A stretch of 17,875 nucleotides of DNA. Source: a virus. The DNA lies in IMG/VR virus record IMGVR_UViG_3300045988_084715; one strand, written 5' to 3'. Position 1 is the first letter of the stretch. The number at the start of each line of letters is the position of its first letter. The notes below the pieces were generated by a model, which was given only the letters and a program-made list of their open reading frames with translations, did not search any database and was not told the origin of the DNA. Positions 2,342 to 17,875 of this stretch are shown piece after piece. The position numbers and the translations under genes are program-made.

Positions 2342-3304
2342 ATGTCTCGGAAGAAAAAGCATGTCAAGGCACGTCAGGCCGCACAAGCCCGCGCCGCACG
2401 TAACATCAAACAGCTTGGCGCCTACTCCCACTCGAATCTCGCCAAAACCGCAGACAAGCAATTGGTCAACATTGCGAAAACTTTGGGCGAGGAATGGGAA
2501 CGGCAGAAGAAGCAGACCATCGCGGAAGCGAAAGCAACACCATATCATGCCAGTGCCGTGGAGAAGCCGACGAAAAAAGACTACATGTTCGCCCGACGCC
2601 CCCCCATCACGGACGCACAGATCAGCGCGGAACCGGTGGCAAGACGCCGTAAACTGCTCAGGCAACAGCAGCGGAAAATCAATGCGGCACGACGGAAAAT
2701 CAACGAATGGAACAAAATGCGGGCCATGCCGCAACGCAGCGTATACGATCAGCGTGTGGCCGAAATCACCGGAACCACCGGCGAGGGTTTCGGGCGTACC
2801 CAGATCATTCCCTCAAAACTCACCGACTTTTTGCAAATGACGAACGTGTTGGGCGACGAAGCGTTCGTCCGATCCCAATTGGAGAGCGGACACCGCGATG
2901 AACTGCGCCGACAGATGCACGACGTTGCCGAAATACTGGGGCTGCGCACCGAACAGAAACGCAGGCCATCCAAAAAACGAGGAACAGGCAAACAGGGCAA
3001 GGACCTGTACGGCGAGCACGAATGGCCGTCATACATGCCACGCGGACGTTACGAAGTGTTCGAAAAAATCTTGGGCACCACGCTCGGTTCGAAACAGCTG
3101 AAACGATTCCGCCAACTGTCGGCAGCGCAAAAGAGGGCTTTCATCGAACAGACCGACGCCCCCCGCGTCGTGTTCGACTGGACGGCGTACGACCCGACTC
3201 GACACGGCTTCACATCGATCTTCCGGGACAACAGCAAGGGTTACCAGCGCGCACGGCGACAGTTCGACCGGTGGATGGCGGAAGCGGGCGCGTTGGAAAA
3301 GTAG
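2342..3304 (+). CDS. Candidate terminal protein (TP) for protein-primed replication (320 aa, very basic)
   Basis: Lies immediately upstream of the protein-primed polymerase, as phi29 gene 3 does. The N-terminus is highly basic (MSRKKKHVKARQAAQARAARNIK) and K/R-rich throughout. I saw no direct sequence similarity by eye; the call rests on synteny, composition and the ITR-bounded genome. Confidence 0.65.
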   Translation: MSRKKKHVKARQAAQARAARNIKQLGAYSHSNLAKTADKQLVNIAKTLGEEWERQKKQTIAEAKATPYHASAVEKPTKKDYMFARRPPITDAQISAEPVARRRKLLRQQQRKINAARRKINEWNKMRAMPQRSVYDQRVAEITGTTGEGFGRTQIIPSKLTDFLQMTNVLGDEAFVRSQLESGHRDELRRQMHDVAEILGLRTEQKRRPSKKRGTGKQGKDLYGEHEWPSYMPRGRYEVFEKILGTTLGSKQLKRFRQLSAAQKRAFIEQTDAPRVVFDWTAYDPTRHGFTSIFRDNSKGYQRARRQFDRWMAEAGALEK

Positions 3305-3335: not shown

Positions 3336-4787
3336 ATGACCATGCAAGACAGTCGGGTGGGATTATGGTGCGCGGATAACGTCATCCGCTGTACGGACGG
3401 CACCGTTCTGTGCGACGTCACCGCGCCACAGTGCCTTCTGGCATCCATCATGTCAGGCGGGAAACTCACCGTCTATGTGACCGATCCTGACGTTTTGGAC
3501 CCGTTTATGGCGCACGTCGTACACTCCCTGCCCCACAACGAGCACAGCGCGAATCTGAGTTGGGACGCGATTGTTTCGAAAAAGGCGAAATTTTTCAGTT
3601 TCACGGTGCGTATCGACCGTGAGAATTCCGCGCGCTTTTTCGACATATCGAATCTTTTGCGTGAGAACTGCCGTCTCACCATGACCGACACGCAACTGCT
3701 CAACATCTTGCGTGAATACGACAGCCGTGGCCTGTGCAAGATCACGGCGGGCGGTGCAAGTATGGAAGCGTTCGCGTCGGGCGAGTGGAAATGGTATTAC
3801 GACAAATTCCCACAACTCGAACCGGAGGATAAAGAGTCATTGCATGACGCTTATATCGGCGGTTTCATGCTCGCCAAAGAGGGAGAGTACGGTCGGGCCA
3901 TCGACGTTGACTGCAATAGCATGTACCCGTCCATCCTCCGGGACGAATGGCTGCCGTGGGGCGAACCGGAACCATACGACGGCAAATATGAACAGGACAA
4001 TGACATGCCGCTGCATTGTGATGAAATCATATTCCGCGCGGAACTCAAACCGGACGGATACCCCTTCCTGCTCGACAACCGCAGTATCTACGGTTTGAAC
4101 CGACTCACCTCAACACGCGGATACATCATGCGCGTGCTGACCGACATCGATCAGGAACTGCTTTACCGGAATTATGAAGTGATCGTCTACAAGCACGTAA
4201 GGGGATGGAAATTCCGACGCTCCAAGGGTTTCTTCCGGTCGTACGTGGATGAATGGGGTGAACTGAAACAACAAGCAACCGGCGAGAAAAAACAGATGGC
4301 GAAACTCATTATGAACGCGCTTGTAGGTAAAATGGCGAGTCTGCCAAAAGGCGCCGTCATGATCCCAACCTCACAAGACGGCGTCACGTTGGACTGGACT
4401 ATGGGACGGCGTGAAGAATCGAACCTCAAAACCGACTATCTGCCCGTGCCGGTCTGGGTCAACGCCTACGCCCGACGCAAACTTATCGACGTATGCCATG
4501 CGAACGCCGACCGGCTGCTGTACGCCAACACGGACGGCTGTATTTTGAGCGGCTGGGATCCGGTGGAATCATGTGACATCCATCCGACCGAACTTGGAAA
4601 ATGGAAAATCGCCGCCAAGTACGAGAGACTGACCATCCTCGGCATGAACCGCTACCAAGGATGGCGTGATGACGGCGGGGTTGACGTCTGCATGGCGGGG
4701 AACATGTTCACGGAACCAATACCGTACGAACAATTCCGGCATGGATCGCAAGTCACGGACGATTACGGCACAACGGTCATGCTATAA
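3336..4787 (+). CDS. Family-B protein-primed DNA polymerase (483 aa)
   Basis: YxGG motif AYIGGF (Y173). Motif A: DVDCNSMYPS. Motif B: KLIMNALVGK, vs phi29 KLMLNSLYGK. Motif C: YANTDG, vs YCDTDS. ELGKWK...NRY corresponds to the phi29 KLGYW...KTY region. Motif A-B and B-C spacings are similar to phi29, which leaves room for the TPR1/TPR2 insertions. SD GGGGGAAAG upstream. Confidence 0.95.
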   Translation: MTMQDSRVGLWCADNVIRCTDGTVLCDVTAPQCLLASIMSGGKLTVYVTDPDVLDPFMAHVVHSLPHNEHSANLSWDAIVSKKAKFFSFTVRIDRENSARFFDISNLLRENCRLTMTDTQLLNILREYDSRGLCKITAGGASMEAFASGEWKWYYDKFPQLEPEDKESLHDAYIGGFMLAKEGEYGRAIDVDCNSMYPSILRDEWLPWGEPEPYDGKYEQDNDMPLHCDEIIFRAELKPDGYPFLLDNRSIYGLNRLTSTRGYIMRVLTDIDQELLYRNYEVIVYKHVRGWKFRRSKGFFRSYVDEWGELKQQATGEKKQMAKLIMNALVGKMASLPKGAVMIPTSQDGVTLDWTMGRREESNLKTDYLPVPVWVNAYARRKLIDVCHANADRLLYANTDGCILSGWDPVESCDIHPTELGKWKIAAKYERLTILGMNRYQGWRDDGGVDVCMAGNMFTEPIPYEQFRHGSQVTDDYGTTVML

Positions 4788-4788
4788 T
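4780..4788 (+). promoter_or_regulatory. Extended -10 promoter (TGcTATAAT) overlapping the polymerase stop codon
   Basis: T4780 G4781 c4782 TATAAT 4783-4788, with the TAA stop at 4785-4787. Same GCTATAATGG core as at 2265 and 13862. Confidence 0.45.
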
Positions 4789-4794
4789 GGTTGA

Positions 4795-4962
4795 GTCCTG
4801 TGAGCGCCGGTTTTCGACTGGGAACGGACGTGTGAGGACTGCCACGGCTGAAAACGCCGCCGAACACGATTCGCTGCTGTGGTGGCAGCGCCCTACGATC
4901 ATCACATTTGCGCTCCAATAGGACAGTCCAGGCCCCGCGCGATTGCGGGGTCATTTTACTTT
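4795..4962 (+). ncRNA. Candidate structured small RNA of about 165 nt (possible pRNA-like packaging RNA or other sRNA)
   Basis: Bounded by the promoter at 4780-4788 and the intrinsic terminator at 4931-4962. A possible 5'/3' closing helix pairs GUCCU (4795-4799) with AGGAC (4920-4924) and AGCGC (4803-4807) with GCGCU (4910-4914), around an internal loop. There is a hairpin CGCUGC-UGUGGUG-GCAGCG (4872-4890) and a GUUUUC/GAAAAC helix (4810-4815/4850-4855). Alternative reading: a 44-aa ORF at 4787-4921. Confidence 0.35.
4931..4962 (+). terminator. Rho-independent terminator closing the early region
   Basis: GGCCCCGC (4931-4938), loop GCGATT, GCGGGGTC (4945-4952), then ATTTTACTTT. Confidence 0.75.
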
Positions 4963-4970
4963 CCGCCGCA

Positions 4971-4979
4971 TGATATAAT
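4971..4979 (+). promoter_or_regulatory. Extended -10 promoter (TGaTATAAT) of the late structural operon
   Basis: TG at 4971-4972, TATAAT at 4974-4979. It lies directly after the terminator and 36 nt upstream of the scaffold ATG (SD AAGGAGA, 5002-5008). Confidence 0.6.
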
Positions 4980-5014
4980 TTGATGAGAACACTACCAACG
5001 TAAGGAGAATTCGC

Positions 5015-5311
5015 ATGGCAAACCCAGACGATAACGGCGAGGAACTCACGACACCGCCGCCGACCGAAGAGGAACAGCAGACCCAAACCGTGGATGACGA
5101 AGTCAACCCGAAGGAACCGGAACCGGAACCGGAACCGGAACCCAAGCAGGACCCGGACGTTTCCGCGCGACTTGACGCACTCGAAAAGGAATTGGCCGCA
5201 TTGAAGGCCATGCTGGACACGCTCGGCTACAACGAACCCGCCCCGTCCGACAACGACAATGACGGCGACAACGACGGTGACGGCGAGTCCATCGAAGATC
5301 TGTTCGACTAA
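5015..5311 (+). CDS. Scaffolding protein (98 aa, acidic, coiled-coil core), phi29 gp7-like by position
   Basis: Strong SD. Lies immediately upstream of the major capsid gene. Very acidic, with an (EP)n tract and a DNDGD tail flanking the helical segment ARLDALEKELAALKAML. As I remember it, phi29 gp7 has the same length. Confidence 0.7.
   Translation: MANPDDNGEELTTPPPTEEEQQTQTVDDEVNPKEPEPEPEPEPKQDPDVSARLDALEKELAALKAMLDTLGYNEPAPSDNDNDGDNDGDGESIEDLFD
5114..5143 (+). repeat. Hexanucleotide microsatellite (GAACCG)x4 plus one imperfect unit, encoding EPEPEPEPEP
   Basis: Direct reading of 5114-5137 shows four perfect GAACCG units, followed by GAACCC. Confidence 0.9.
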
Positions 5312-5325
5312 AGAAAGGAATAACA

Positions 5326-7044
5326 ATGTCCAATATTCGACCATTGGCTGGCAAGGGTGACGTCGAGATTTTCAACGCCGTCCGCAACGCAACCAGCCCG
5401 CAGTTCCAGACCCGCATCCCCGCCGCAACGCAGGGCAATATCCGCAACGCGGTGGACACCATGCGCAATTTCCCCTACTTGCGGGACGAGTTCACCGGCG
5501 TGCTGATCCAGCGGCTGATCGGCCTTTACGTCCAGCATGCGGATTGGGATGACCCGCTCAAGCTGATCGGCTCTCCGCGCACACTCAAGCGGTACGGATC
5601 CACCTACGAACAGGCTGCCGTGGGCTTGGTCAAGGCCCGCACCCGCAATTTCAACAAGGAATACCTTGGAGATGACGTGTATGGCCGGTACTCGCTGCCG
5701 ACCGCAAGCGTGTTCCACCCCTTGACTTTCGATCATTACTATCCCGTCACCATCCCGGAGGACGCGCTGCTGACGGCGTTTGACGGCGAAAGCGGCATGT
5801 CGGATTACATCGCGGAAATCATGAACGCGCCCATCCTTTCGGATAGAAACGACATGTACTTGATGAAGACGCAGACGTTTGCCGAGTACGCGCGCAAGGG
5901 CGGTTTCTACCGCGTACACACCCCCGACGTCGGCAAGGCCGACTCGACCGAAGCGGACGCAAAGGGTTTGCTGCGCCTTATCCAGCAGATGGCGAACGAA
6001 CTCAAGGCGTCGCCAATGTCCGCCATGCCGCGATACAACGCCATGTCTTGGGTGACGCCGTGGCGCGATTCGGAAGCCATTCTTTTCGCCACCCCGCAGG
6101 TCATCGCCGCGCTCAATGTCGAAGCATTGGCCGCCGCCTTCAATATCGACAGGGCGAACGTGCCGTATCGCATCATTCCGATTCCGGAGGATATGTTCGG
6201 AATCGGCGGCAACGGCGGGAAGGTCCAAGCCGTCCTCACCACGGAGGACTTCTTCTTCTGCTGGGATGAAATGCTGGAAACCACCAACTCCCCCGTGAAT
6301 CCGATTGACGGCACACGTAACATCTTCTACAAGCATCGCGGCTCCATCACCCCCAATCCGTTCGCCAACGCCATCCTGTTCTGGACGGGCGAAGGATCCA
6401 ACGAGTCCGTGACCCTGCCGGACACGCTCACCACCTCCACGCCAAAGTTCGAATTGCGCGTGCAGAAGTACGGCCAGAACACGATCACCCCCGAAAACGT
6501 GTCGCGCGGTGACTTGGTTCAGGTGGTCTCCACCATTTCCAGCGGCAACAGGGAAACGGCGACATTCCAGCCGACCGGCATCAAATACGCCGTCGAGGGC
6601 GCCACCTCCCAGTTCACAAGCATCGACAATGACGGCATCCTGCGGTGCGGCCTTGACGAAACCGCAGAAACGCTCAAGGTCACCGCCCAAGCCACCTACA
6701 TCGACCCGGCCACTCCTGAAATCGACCAGACGGTTTCCGCCGCACTGTCCGTGCCCGTGGTCGGCACTTGGCTTGGCGGATGGAAGGCCGGATCCATCGA
6801 GTCCATTGAGATCCAAGGCGAAAAAACCGTCAAAGTCAAGGGGAATGTCGCACTGAAGGCCATTGCAACCAAGACGGACGGCAACACGACCGACGTGACC
6901 GACCTCGCCATGTGGTCGGTTGACGCCAACGCGACCGTCGCCCCCAACGGCATGCTGACCGGAACCGGTACAGGCACCGCCAAAGTCACCGCGAAATTCG
7001 CGGGGGAAACCGGACTGGCACAGGTCACCGTCACCGCCCAGTGA
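5326..7044 (+). CDS. Major capsid protein (phi29 gp8-like) with C-terminal bacterial Ig-like (Big_2-type) domains, 572 aa
   Basis: The N-terminal IFNAVRNATSPQFQTRIPAAT resembles the remembered gp8 segment [21 protein letters not shown]. The C-terminal SIEIQGEKTVKVKGNVALKAIATKTDGNTTDVTDLAMWSV...AKVTAKFAGETGLAQVTVTA is a typical Big_2 pattern, preceded by a second Ig-like segment. Position follows the scaffold gene. Confidence 0.9.
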   Translation: MSNIRPLAGKGDVEIFNAVRNATSPQFQTRIPAATQGNIRNAVDTMRNFPYLRDEFTGVLIQRLIGLYVQHADWDDPLKLIGSPRTLKRYGSTYEQAAVGLVKARTRNFNKEYLGDDVYGRYSLPTASVFHPLTFDHYYPVTIPEDALLTAFDGESGMSDYIAEIMNAPILSDRNDMYLMKTQTFAEYARKGGFYRVHTPDVGKADSTEADAKGLLRLIQQMANELKASPMSAMPRYNAMSWVTPWRDSEAILFATPQVIAALNVEALAAAFNIDRANVPYRIIPIPEDMFGIGGNGGKVQAVLTTEDFFFCWDEMLETTNSPVNPIDGTRNIFYKHRGSITPNPFANAILFWTGEGSNESVTLPDTLTTSTPKFELRVQKYGQNTITPENVSRGDLVQVVSTISSGNRETATFQPTGIKYAVEGATSQFTSIDNDGILRCGLDETAETLKVTAQATYIDPATPEIDQTVSAALSVPVVGTWLGGWKAGSIESIEIQGEKTVKVKGNVALKAIATKTDGNTTDVTDLAMWSVDANATVAPNGMLTGTGTGTAKVTAKFAGETGLAQVTVTAQ

Positions 7045-7061
7045 CGGCGTTTGACCGGTAA

Positions 7062-7101
7062 AATAGGTGTGGATAGACTTTTTATCCACACCTATTGTTT
7101 T
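7062..7101 (+). terminator. Strong intrinsic terminator/attenuator after the capsid gene
   Basis: Perfect 14-bp stem: AATAGGTGTGGATA (7062-7075) and TATCCACACCTATT (7083-7096), with loop GACTTTT, followed by GTTTT. Confidence 0.8.
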
Positions 7102-9349: not shown

Positions 9350-9389
9350 AATGGAGGGAGTCGAGAAAACTCTCTCCATTATTTATATT
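9350..9389 (+). terminator. Intrinsic terminator after the tail knob gene
   Basis: 11-bp stem: AATGGAGGGAG (9350-9360) and CTCTCTCCATT (9370-9380), with one G-U pair. Loop TCGAGAAAA, followed by ATTTATATT. Confidence 0.7.
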
Positions 9390-9401: not shown

Positions 9402-10346
9402 ATGGGCAAGCGCAACAACGCGCGCAAGGCGGCACACTGGGACAACCAGAGTGTACTCGGATCCATGTGGAGCAATTTGAATCTGCCGGAAATGCGGCAA
9501 AGCCTGAGAATCAACCAGTACATGAAGCTGATTGAAATGCTGGCCGTATCCCGATTCAAATGGATAAACCTCCCACCATATATTGACGAACGATATTTAG
9601 AACTGACCCTGTTCGAGAACGGCTTGGCCCTCTTCTTCCCTGACAAGCGCGAAGGGGTACACCGTTTTATGGTCACGTCGGGCAATATCGGCGGAGTCAA
9701 CAATTACAATAATCCGACGTCATTCCAGCCCGTCGCCACGAACTACTCACATCCGCAGATCGGTTCGAAGGAATGCGTTCCGATCTGGGACAACCAGTTG
9801 CGTTGCACCATGATCGACGTCATGTGGAATTACGCGACGCGACTGGCTATCGCAGACCGGGCATTGGACGTCAACCTCGACAACATTTCGGTGCCGTTGA
9901 TTATCGCCACGTCGGAAACCAACAAACTCACCGCCCAAAACCTCATGAAAGCGAGGGAGGACGGCGATCCGTACGTGTACGCCTATGACTCGGCGGATAT
10001 TACCGGCATGTTCCAGACATTCCCAAATATGACGCCGTTTCTTGCGGATAAAATCATCACCACCAAAACGCAGATCTGGAATGAATTAGTCAATTATCTT
10101 GGTATTGACAACAGCACGACGGAAAAGAAGGAACGACTGCTCGAATCTGAAGTGACGGCGGGTAATTCGCGTACGAACGTGTTCCGCCTGAGCTATCTGA
10201 AAGCACGTCAACAGGCATGCGATACGATCAACCGGTTGTGGCCGCAAATGGCCGATTCCGGGAAACCCATCGGCGTCGAATGGAACGACATCACTTCGGG
10301 CGGACTCTTGGACGTTGATGGAAACAAAGAGGAGGAAGAACAATGA
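9402..10346 (+). CDS. Head-tail connector / portal (upper collar, phi29 gp10-like), 314 aa
   Basis: ATG 9402 lies 7 nt after AAGGA. The ATG at 9351 is rejected because it lies inside the terminator stem. [23 protein letters not shown] matches gp10 [49 protein letters not shown] matches [26 protein letters not shown]. Confidence 0.93.
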   Translation: [314 protein letters not shown]

Positions 10347-13850: not shown

Positions 13851-13885
13851 AATGGCCATGCCGCTATAATGGTGGCATGGCCATT
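13851..13885 (+). promoter_or_regulatory. Perfect 12-bp palindrome enclosing a TATAAT box and the start codon of the tail lysin gene
   Basis: AATGGCCATGCC (13851-13862), loop GCTATAATGGT (13863-13873), GGCATGGCCATT (13874-13885). TATAAT at 13865-13870 lies 6 nt upstream of the A of ATG 13877. There is no usable SD. Confidence 0.5.
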
Positions 13886-15231: not shown

Positions 15232-16299
15232 ATGACGTTGCAGACGCTCGATGAACACGATTATTACGATCTGCACAATCTGTTGACGCGGAACGCGCCG
15301 TGGAACTTCATCATCGGCGCACGCGGCCTAGGCAAGACGTTCGCCGCGAAAAGATACGGTATCAAAGAATATCTCAAGCACGGCCATGAGTTCATCTATC
15401 TCAGGCGCACCGACGTGGAACAGCACAGGAAGGAAACCTTTTTCAAAGACATTCAGGAGTTCTTTCCCTCATACGAGTTCAGGGTCAACGGTGAAAAAGG
15501 GCAGATCCATAAAACATCATGGAATGAAAAAGACTGGCGGACATGCTGTTATTTCGTCGCACTATCCCAAGCGGGCGGACTCAAGTCAGTCGCCTACCCC
15601 AAAGTGCATCTCATTATTTTCGATGAAATCTTCCCCGACAACCTGCGGTTTTTGAGCAATGAGGTAAACTCGTTTTCCGAATTTTACAACACCGTAGACA
15701 GGTGGCAAGACCGAACAAAAGTACTGTTCCTCTCGAACGCGGTTCAAAAAGCCAACCCATACTTCGCAAAATACCGGTTGGATATTGGCGTCCAACAAGC
15801 CAACCGGCAACAATACAAACTCTATTGCAGCGGGTTCATCTGTCTGGAGTTGGCCGACTATGGTGGTTTCTCGGCCAAAGTCGCGCAATCCAAGTTCGGC
15901 AGATTCCTCGAACGGTACGACGGTGAATACGCCGACTATGCCATACGCAACAAGTTCCGCGACGAGTCAGACACGTTGATAGCGCCAATCCCTAATGACG
16001 GCGAACTATCCTACGTTCTGGACACCACCGATTATGCGCAGTTCGGAGTGTGGGCTTCCGTGTCCGAACGCGACGGACATGTTTCCCAATATATTTCACG
16101 ACGCATTCCCAAAGACAACAACCGTCCAATATACACACTCGACCCGAACCATGTTGACGAAAAAACATGGTATGTCAAAAAATCGGATGATATAATAAGA
16201 CGGCTCACCACCGGCTATCGACTCGGCAAAATACGATTCGATGATTCACAAGTCAAAGCCGACTTCGGTTTGATTATCGGAGAATTGCTAGGTAAATAG
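15232..16299 (+). CDS. DNA encapsidation (packaging) ATPase, phi29 gp16-like, 355 aa
   Basis: WNFIIGARGLGKTFAAKRY...FIYLRR matches gp16 LNFVIGARGIGKSYAMKVY...FIYVRR (Walker A). AYPKVHLIIFDEIF matches AYPNVSTIVFDEFI (Walker B). LSNAVQKANPYF matches LSNAVSVVNPYF. Confidence 0.95.
   Translation: MTLQTLDEHDYYDLHNLLTRNAPWNFIIGARGLGKTFAAKRYGIKEYLKHGHEFIYLRRTDVEQHRKETFFKDIQEFFPSYEFRVNGEKGQIHKTSWNEKDWRTCCYFVALSQAGGLKSVAYPKVHLIIFDEIFPDNLRFLSNEVNSFSEFYNTVDRWQDRTKVLFLSNAVQKANPYFAKYRLDIGVQQANRQQYKLYCSGFICLELADYGGFSAKVAQSKFGRFLERYDGEYADYAIRNKFRDESDTLIAPIPNDGELSYVLDTTDYAQFGVWASVSERDGHVSQYISRRIPKDNNRPIYTLDPNHVDEKTWYVKKSDDIIRRLTTGYRLGKIRFDDSQVKADFGLIIGELLGK
16188..16196 (+). promoter_or_regulatory. Possible extended -10 promoter (TGaTATAAT) for the lysis cassette, inside the 3' end of the ATPase gene
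   Basis: TG at 16188-16189, TATAAT at 16191-16196. The 9-mer is identical to the late promoter at 4971-4979. It lies about 120 nt upstream of the holin ATG. Confidence 0.35.
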
Positions 16300-17766: not shown

Positions 17767-17875
17767 CACTATACCACAAACAAAACAACAACACCCAAAA
17801 ACAAAACACAACAACAACAACAAACACCCACCCACCAACCAACAAACTACACTTACGTAACCGTAACTTAGCTAA
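17767..17875. repeat. Right inverted terminal repeat (ITR)
   Basis: It is the reverse complement of nt 1-111, minus one GT dinucleotide. Confidence 0.95.
17768..17776 (-). promoter_or_regulatory. Extended -10 promoter at the inner edge of the right ITR, firing inward
   Basis: The reverse complement of 17768-17776 is TGGTATAGT, identical to nt 102-110. Confidence 0.45.

Follow-up and report, generated by a model that had tools for sequence, protein, structure and literature searches.

Results and Discussion

The question raised by this locus is what lies between two neighbouring genes of a gut phage. The window that we analysed, i.e. the whole 17,875-bp stretch of viral DNA recorded as IMGVR_UViG_3300045988_084715, carries a family-B DNA polymerase gene (3336–4787, + strand; an open reading frame, ORF), and from its stop codon to the ATG of the gene for a scaffold-like protein (5015) there is a gap of 227 bp. 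An earlier note on this DNA had placed in the gap an extended −10 promoter overlapping the polymerase stop, an intrinsic terminator and, running from the one to the other, an RNA that could be a phi29-type packaging RNA (pRNA); the gap, the promoter and the terminator are all as it described. The promoter (4780–4788), a structured core of 130 nt (4795–4924) and the terminator (4931–4962) make up one unit on the + strand. We regard it as certain that this is a non-coding RNA gene with a conserved structure; its most likely function, which we consider probable, would be that of a phi29-type prohead (packaging) RNA.

The gap holds a conserved non-coding RNA gene

Taken as a single sequence, the element is inconspicuous: its folding energy is unremarkable (z = −1.4 to −1.7), with z-scores that are not significant on either strand. 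Thermodynamics alone would thus not have flagged it, and the case rests on comparison with relatives. We collected these by scanning three DNA patterns over IMG/VR and metagenomes, two of the patterns leaving the disputed loop and bulge (see below) free to vary, and by adding GenBank phages, which yielded 114 distinct copies of the element among human-gut phage relatives. Wherever a locus contains both the polymerase and the capsid gene (97 loci), the element is located between the two on the same strand, starting 10–23 nt past the end of the polymerase match. A covariance model of the family, built from 47 representatives, finds exactly one match per locus in 92 of 92 loci, with scores of 107–155 bits.

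The secondary structure was derived with RNAalifold and explicit pair counts, which agree on both a MAFFT alignment and a model-based alignment. In these, 96.7% and 98.1% of pair cells are paired, respectively, as against only 32–50% when the partners are slid by 1–3 columns. Compensatory changes on both sides are seen in 26 of 43 pairs, and the observed values were reached in none of 500 shuffles. The covariation analysis that the earlier note had proposed thus shows helices that covary strongly across relatives, and supports its promoter-to-terminator RNA.

As one competing outcome, the note had named a conserved 44-aa ORF (4787–4921) combined with helices that do not covary; the opposite was found on both counts. 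While this ORF is present in our genome and overlaps the polymerase stop (TAATG), we rejected it as a conserved gene, since the TAATG start occurs in only 32 of 93 relatives, and where it does occur the frame is 5 aa long in 19 of the 32 and otherwise 13–64 aa. Across the core, none of the reading frames stays open in every member, the indels are not multiples of three and the substitution pattern is that of base-paired helices. We consider it extremely improbable that the region encodes a 44-aa peptide translationally coupled to the polymerase stop, and a coding role for the region is excluded.

The core folds into a three-way junction

The 130-nt core is closed by a long A-like helix of 19 bp formed by its 5' and 3' ends, with compensatory changes in all five of its segments. 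The outermost segment, P1a (4795–4799, GUCCU, with 4920–4924, AGGAC), is 99% paired; its pair types include UG, UA and CG at one of the positions, and at a second position UA as well as CG. It is followed by P1b (4802–4807, GAGCGC, with 4910–4915, GCGCUC), which is 99.8% paired with compensatory changes in three of six pairs (e.g. GC in 78 and AU in 10). These are the complementary 5' and 3' segments that had been seen in the single sequence, and both helices covary in relatives. The inner part of the A-like helix consists of P1c (4809–4810, GG, with 4902–4903, UC), P2a (4814–4816, UCG, with 4896–4898, CGA) and P2b (4820–4822, GGG, with 4891–4893, CCC), the latter two separated by a near-invariant ACU/UA internal loop (4817–4819 and 4894–4895). 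In the divergent relatives L032, L037, L055 and L075 this inner part is exactly compensated (e.g. AGG/CCU, GAG/CUC, UUG/CA). The 3' strand of the A-like helix as a whole spans 4891–4924 and contains a variable unpaired stretch at about 4899–4909. One helix of the earlier note did not survive the comparison: GUUUUC/GAAAAC can form in this genome, but has an A.C mismatch in 29 of 90 relatives, shows no compensation and is broken in divergent members; the helix that covaries in its place is UCG..GGG (4814–4822) with CCC..CGA (4891–4898), i.e. P2a and P2b.

The A-like helix ends in a junction with two arms. The first arm starts with P3, a C-like helix (4829–4837 with 4860–4868) that has compensatory changes in seven of nine pairs and in this genome contains a tandem G.A/A.G at 4834–4835 and 4862–4863. 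It continues through a bulge of 7 nt on the 5' strand only, ACUGCCA (4838–4844; similar to the CE loop of pRNA), into P4, a 4-bp E-like hairpin (CGGC/GCCG, 4845–4848 with 4856–4859) capped by the 7-nt loop UGAAAAC. The UGA of this loop is invariant in the family, the P4 stem has one compensatory change (CGAC/GUCG in L123), and the 3' strand of P4 runs straight into that of P3. Past a short junction (4869–4871), the second arm is P5, a D-like hairpin (4872–4878 with 4884–4890) which is 99.5% paired and has compensatory changes in seven of seven pairs. This is the internal hairpin of the earlier note, drawn there with 6 bp, and now confirmed as 7 bp with the 5-nt loop GUGGU (4879–4883). There is no unpaired base between the 3' strand of P5, which ends at 4890, and the CCC of P2b (4891–4893).

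As judged against the consensus structure of Rfam family RF00044 (Phage_pRNA), which we used as the phi29 side of the comparison, the consensus fold of the window family corresponds element for element to domain I of phi29 pRNA. The match of the comparative structure is much closer than was visible from the single sequence.

Bulge and hairpin loop are complementary

In phi29, neighbouring pRNA molecules are joined by loop-loop contacts, and the note had listed two partners for the P5 loop. The last four bases of the bulge, GCCA (4841–4844), are complementary to bases 2–5 of that loop, UGGU (4880–4883), which read UGGC or UGGU across the family. The proposed complementarity of the loop to the bulge, i.e. 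to (G)CCA(C) at 4841–4845, is conserved, and the other suggested partner, CACA at about 4903–4906, falls in a variable stretch with partly gapped columns. Counting the neighbouring C-G, whose C is also part of the first P4 pair, five of five pairs are kept in 99 of the 114 distinct elements. Pair 4841–4883 is G-C in the majority and otherwise G-U or A-U: A never stands opposite C, and in 10 of 10 cases it stands opposite U. Mapped on a neighbour-joining tree of just the flanking genes, this pair, the one of the contact that covaries, takes at least five G/A changes and at least nine C/U changes. The two central C-G pairs are essentially invariant. Nuclear magnetic resonance (NMR) work on phi29 found just two G-C pairs between the loops (PMC5066667), and the conservation pattern seen here is compatible with that two-pair precedent.

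Elements at the same locus in other phages

More distant actinobacterial phi29-like phages share the gene order and have a gap upstream of the scaffold-like gene. For Arthrobacter phages (Anjalivirus) we assembled a set of the GenBank phages Mendel, Anjali, Tillums and Swim together with eight IMG/VR relatives, with capsid proteins 71–100% identical. These phages and their soil virome relatives carry an unannotated structured RNA of phi29 pRNA topology (Mendel, L163, 4929–5037; relatives L222–L224 and L227–L242), with helices that covary across 12 distinct sequences. The A-like and C-like helices covary (one C-like pair is CG in 6, AU in 4 and GC in 2), as does the D-like hairpin (one pair is CG in 9 and GC in 3). 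The bulge is on the 5' strand and 6 nt long, and the E-like hairpin reads [C/U]CCC-UUGAAU-GGG[G/A], its loop being close to the conserved UUGAGU of phi29. Here too the bulge, (A/C)GCU, is complementary to the D loop, AGC(U/A), with GCU and AGC invariant.

The Arthrobacter element and the window family share the locus, immediately upstream of the scaffold-like and capsid genes, and the pRNA topology. They differ in that the Arthrobacter core is shorter (about 105 nt), the bulge reads xxCGCU or xCAGCU and the D loop has 6 nt. Furthermore, unlike in the window, an extra ribbon-helix-helix gene stands between polymerase and RNA, and the RNA, with a terminator behind it, is flanked by this gene and the scaffold-like gene. 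The stop codon of the preceding gene marks the start of the element, and no promoter motif is evident upstream.

A covariance model of the Arthrobacter element (R2) was tried on Curtobacterium phage Mantle, the window, BadAztec2, phi29 and two members of the window family, and its sole match was a homologous element in Mantle (18.9 bits, E = 0.006). The matched gap (L164, 4642–4769), which precedes the scaffold-like gene, includes a hairpin of sequence GGCGG-UUGAUU-CCGCC; the Curtobacterium relatives of this element are 97–98% identical, so covariation has no power there. Mantle also has a separate element directly after the polymerase gene (L164, 4228–4320), with a TTGACA...GTACAGT promoter-like site and an 87-nt RNA that has a 12-bp closing helix (z = −3.65).

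Finally, bee-gut Bifidobacterium phages have an element at the same locus (BadAztec2, L162, 12705–12884, minus strand; BadAargau2, L166), for which GenBank phages and IMG/VR provide just two distinct sequences. In both phages the motif TGCTATAGT or TGCTATAAT, i.e. TGCTATA(A/G)T, overlaps the polymerase stop. A GUGAGCG/CGCUCAC helix closes the element, with compensatory changes further in between the two sequences, and there are a CGUA-UUAAGU-UACG hairpin, GUGGU as a possible hairpin loop and a covarying GC-rich hairpin. A pRNA-like fold is possible, with a free energy of −35.1 kcal/mol as compared to −42.2 kcal/mol for the optimum, and two sequences are too few to fix the fold.

Taken together, at least two families of pRNA topology are found next to head genes, one in human-gut Bifidobacterium phages and one in Arthrobacter and Curtobacterium phages, with no detectable similarity to each other or to phi29; a third family, in bee-gut Bifidobacterium phages, is possible. 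The Bacillus-family model RF00044 has no match in BadAztec2, Mendel or Mantle, and the blindness of Bacillus-family covariance models to these families would explain why they have escaped annotation.

A probable packaging RNA

What would such an RNA do? We favour a role in genome packaging because of the topological identity with pRNA, the phi29-type motor of the phage, including the C-terminal domain of its ATPase (see below), the shared gene order and the fact that a second phage lineage shows this topology too. Under this model, the extended −10 promoter would start, and the intrinsic terminator end, an RNA of about 165 nt composed of a 130-nt domain I, a short linker and the terminator hairpin. 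Domain I would be a long irregular 5'/3' A-like helix ending in a three-way junction, with one arm predicted to consist of the 9-bp C-like helix, the 7-nt 5'-strand bulge and the 4-bp E-like hairpin cap, and the other of the 7-bp D-like hairpin stacked on the 5'/3' helix. By analogy with phi29, the GCCA of one molecule would pair with the UGGU or UGGC of the next, and this pairing would close an RNA ring around the prohead's portal vertex. Contacts with the capsid and the portal may be made by the E-like loop and the region of the junction, and the protruding A-like helices may dock a gp16-type ATPase, which would pump the terminal-protein-capped genome into the head; the RNA would then be essential for packaging.

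Several observations weigh against this function. The Rfam comparison that the earlier note had called for did not recognise the element: RF00044 gave no match in the whole window at the gathering threshold, nor in 4600–5150 at E ≤ 10. As a positive control, the same model scores 145.4 bits on phi29, the gathering threshold being 100 bits. The window RNA is therefore not a member of that sequence family. With other Rfam families we found nothing relevant, only chance-level matches at E ≥ 1 (whole window at gathering thresholds, 4600–5150 under permissive settings). Moreover, the window-family model (R1) and R2 detect neither each other nor phi29, and in BadAztec2, Mendel and Mantle R1 yields nothing below E = 1; the models thus lend no support to homology between the families or to common descent with pRNA, and the shared fold may reflect convergence or serve a different function. 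Two structural details also disagree with phi29: the A-C junction has 5–6 nt in the window family and 1 nt in phi29, and the window A-like helix has no three-base CCA bulge of the kind that binds the ATPase, the nearest analogue being the near-invariant ACU/UA internal loop. As for the loop-bulge contact, at least eight distinct elements scattered over the tree have an uncompensated A-to-U change at the fourth bulge position, and two further elements have an uncompensated U-to-C change in the loop. Lastly, asccphi28, a phi29-like phage, is reported without evidence of a pRNA (PMC7823558), implying that a gp16-like ATPase does not require one.

The loop-bulge complementarity would, moreover, fit an intramolecular pseudoknot equally well. 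This leads to an alternative that we regard as rather unlikely, namely that the element has some other role, either as a stable small RNA or as the 3' end of the polymerase mRNA, such as regulation of host or phage genes in trans, protein sequestration or protection of the mRNA 3' end, and that the loop-bulge contact is a pseudoknot that compacts the molecule. Three-way junctions with two arms in loop contact are common in monomeric RNAs, purine riboswitches being an example. The structure and its conservation are certain, yet do not alone specify the function, and no covariance model links the element to pRNA. Conversely, protection of a 3' end needs no invariant bulge, loops or junction, and we noticed no conserved single-stranded seed, though no specific seed search was made. 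The combination of pRNA topology, a phi29-type motor and a phi29-like gene order would be an unlikely coincidence if the RNA did something else.

No RNA component of a viral DNA-packaging motor other than pRNA is known, and reviews published up to 2024 treat it as confined to phi29 and its Bacillus relatives (PMC5066667, PMC11476376). One of them, a 2024 review which lists roughly 2,000 phi29-like genomes and has BD811P1 in its data set, states that pRNA is, as far as is currently known, found only in this Bacillus group (PMC11476376). For other phi29-like phages, authors see no evidence of pRNA and build hypotheses on its absence (PMC7823558). Our full-text literature search found no report of pRNA outside Bacillus phages. 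We lean, if only slightly, towards the view that a packaging RNA is a widespread and probably ancestral part of the phi29-type packaging motor rather than a Bacillus peculiarity. If so, covariation-supported pRNAs in phages of Actinobacteria would make RNA part of the motor's basic design. Dozens of natural variants would then reveal its essential features, candidates for which are the 4-bp E hairpin and its purine-rich loop, the kissing contact of two G-C pairs and the way D stacks on A. What the RNA does could be studied in new culturable systems (phages BP1 and BD811P1-3), RNA nanotechnology would gain new three-way-junction and ring-forming modules, and a conserved gene would be annotated in an abundant group of human-gut phages.

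Promoters, terminator and extent of the RNA unit

The promoter of the unit, an extended −10 element of sequence TGCTATAAT (4780–4788, + strand), is assigned by motif match only and extends over the final codons and the stop of the polymerase gene. Four copies of the motif TGNTATAAT are present in the window, all on the + strand (2264–2272, 4780–4788, 4971–4979 and 16188–16196), where 0.23 copies are expected by chance and four or more were seen in none of 200 shuffles. The sites precede ORF 2342–3304, the RNA, the scaffold ORF and the holin ORF, one each. The spelling TGCTATAAT stands before ORF 2342–3304, which precedes the polymerase gene, and before the RNA, and TGATATAAT precedes holin as well as the scaffold and capsid genes; these variants may correspond to an early and a late class of promoters. 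In relatives the 4780–4788 motif is kept, the 6–7 nt that follow up to 4795 vary and conservation restarts exactly at 4795. Transcription is predicted to start at about G4795.

On the 3' side, a variable linker of 6 nt (4925–4930) connects the core to the intrinsic terminator (4931–4962), which consists of a stem-loop (4931–4952) followed by AUUUUACUUU, the U tract extending to 4962. It is among the best terminator-like sites in the window, and its stem covaries in relatives (CCCCGC/GCGGGG, CCCUCC/GGAGGG, CCGCAC/GUGCGG). Directly beyond it, a second extended −10 promoter, TGATATAAT (4971–4979, + strand), bounds the RNA unit; CATGATATAATTT of this promoter is kept in all relatives, and it would serve the scaffold and capsid (late) genes.

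This arrangement bears on a further explanation, according to which the element acts in cis at the boundary of early and late genes, either by antitermination like the put RNA of phage HK022 or as a protein- or ligand-sensing attenuator, the nascent RNA deciding between a stop at the 4931–4962 terminator and read-through into the scaffold and capsid genes. The order of promoter, structured RNA closed by its 5' and 3' ends, terminator and late genes is indeed the layout of an attenuator or a put element, and the Arthrobacter counterpart, which begins at the upstream stop codon with no promoter motif evident, would suit such a role. However, with the conserved 4971–4979 promoter located past the terminator and ahead of the late genes, these need no read-through to be transcribed. 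The variable linker leaves no conserved alternative pairing between core and terminator: in the relatives we saw no conserved pairing of the antiterminator or riboswitch type between the 3' strand of the core and the terminator. Nor would an attenuator be expected to match pRNA in such detail, with loop-bulge complementarity at the same positions. We thus consider a cis-acting role unlikely.

The phage and its packaging genes

The window is a complete linear phage genome with perfect 85-bp inverted terminal repeats (1–85 and 17791–17875), which extend to 94 bp if a few mismatches are allowed, are rich in GTT/GGT repeats and, we infer, fit protein-primed replication. It shares 74–81% nucleotide identity with human-gut contigs and with the Bifidobacterium phages BP1 and BD811P1-3. 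The gene content is that of a phi29-like podovirus, with PHROG families for terminase, upper collar and lower collar. Genes for a single-stranded DNA-binding protein (SSB), a 320-aa protein, the polymerase, the scaffold-like protein, the major capsid protein, the tail, the upper collar (portal) and the lower collar follow one another in this order, and the lysis genes and a 355-aa packaging ATPase come last. The 320-aa protein, located before the polymerase, occupies the position of the terminal protein. The scaffold-like protein (5015–5311, + strand; 98 aa) is very acidic, with a (PE)5 repeat and a predicted coiled-coil segment, and has no family match in PHROGs.

The ATPase aligns with full-length phi29 gp16 including its C-terminal domain (7jqq, residues 7–341, E = 3.6e-37); against the ATPase of asccphi28, it matches in the N-terminal domain only. 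The portal aligns with phi29 gp10 (1h5w, E = 7e-29). While its longest ORF starts at 9351, homology and the basic N-terminus MGKRNNARKAAH point to the ATG at 9402 as the true start. The likely N-terminus, MGKRNNARK, is basic and resembles the pRNA-binding N-terminus of the phi29 connector, which is described as binding pRNA via its N-terminal 14 residues (Xiao et al. 2005, as cited in PMC9965433).

Two other features of the genome are worth recording. A near-perfect palindrome of 35 bp (16 pairs; 13851–13885), with TATAAT in and around its loop, lies directly upstream of, and overlaps, the start of a gene for a 407-aa endolysin-like protein (13877) and could be an operator or a regulated promoter. 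Opposite the major capsid gene, the minus strand carries a 593-aa ORF (5308–7089), probably an artefact that arises from the codon bias of this genome of 54% G+C.

Comparison with phi29 pRNA and other RNAs

Like the window RNA, the put RNA of HK022 and attenuator leaders are structured RNAs that have a promoter in front of them, a terminator behind them and late or structural genes further downstream. Unlike it, put consists of two simple stem-loops, and attenuators have alternative antiterminator pairings and no promoter past the terminator; neither has a three-way junction of the pRNA type with complementary bulge and loop.

Compared to phi29, the RNA differs in several respects besides those weighed above. 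Its A-like helix is more interrupted (5+6+2+3+3 bp), and its E loop is UGAGAAU or UGAAAAC across the family as opposed to UUGAGU in phi29. In phi29, U54-G55-A56 touch the capsid (PMC6542822), and the invariant UGA of the E loop recalls this triplet, as a mere resemblance. The phi29 pRNA gene is located at the left genome end, whereas that of the window RNA is flanked by the polymerase and scaffold genes at a mid-genome position; the pRNA genes of GA1 and Karezi are non-terminal as well (PMC9965433). The hosts differ too: pRNAs of the RF00044 type are carried by the Bacillus phages phi29, PZA, M2/Nf, B103, SF5 and GA1, and the window phage has an actinobacterial host in the human gut.

The likenesses run through the whole molecule (PMC5066667). 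Both RNAs have an A helix closing the 5' and 3' ends and a three-way junction. In both, the C helix has 9 bp with a single bulged base on the 5' side (3+6 bp in the window family, 5+4 bp in phi29), and a bulge on the 5' strand only (7 nt and 9 nt, respectively) leads to an E helix of 4 bp (loop of 7 nt and 6 nt, respectively), with the 3' strands of E and C contiguous. The C-D junction is UUU in phi29 and 3–7 nt, mostly A/U-rich, in the window family. The D helix has 6 bp in phi29 and 7 bp here, both have a D loop of 5 nt, and in both the 3' strand of D is contiguous with A. The last four nucleotides of the bulge are complementary to loop nucleotides 2–5, at the same positions in both. The sizes are similar as well: 174 nt for phi29 pRNA and about 165 nt for the window RNA, with a domain I of about 117–120 nt and a core of 130 nt, respectively. 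Domain II of phi29 pRNA, a hairpin followed by a U tract, has its counterpart in the linker and terminator hairpin.

At the level of the genome, both RNAs form a promoter-to-terminator unit that follows the polymerase gene and has its orientation. The early strand of phi29 reads polymerase, gene 1 cluster, promoter A1, pRNA and the domain II terminator, and the window reads SSB, 320-aa ORF, polymerase, promoter, RNA and terminator. Like the window phage, phi29 is a small phage with inverted terminal repeats, a gp16-type ATPase and a gp10-type portal.

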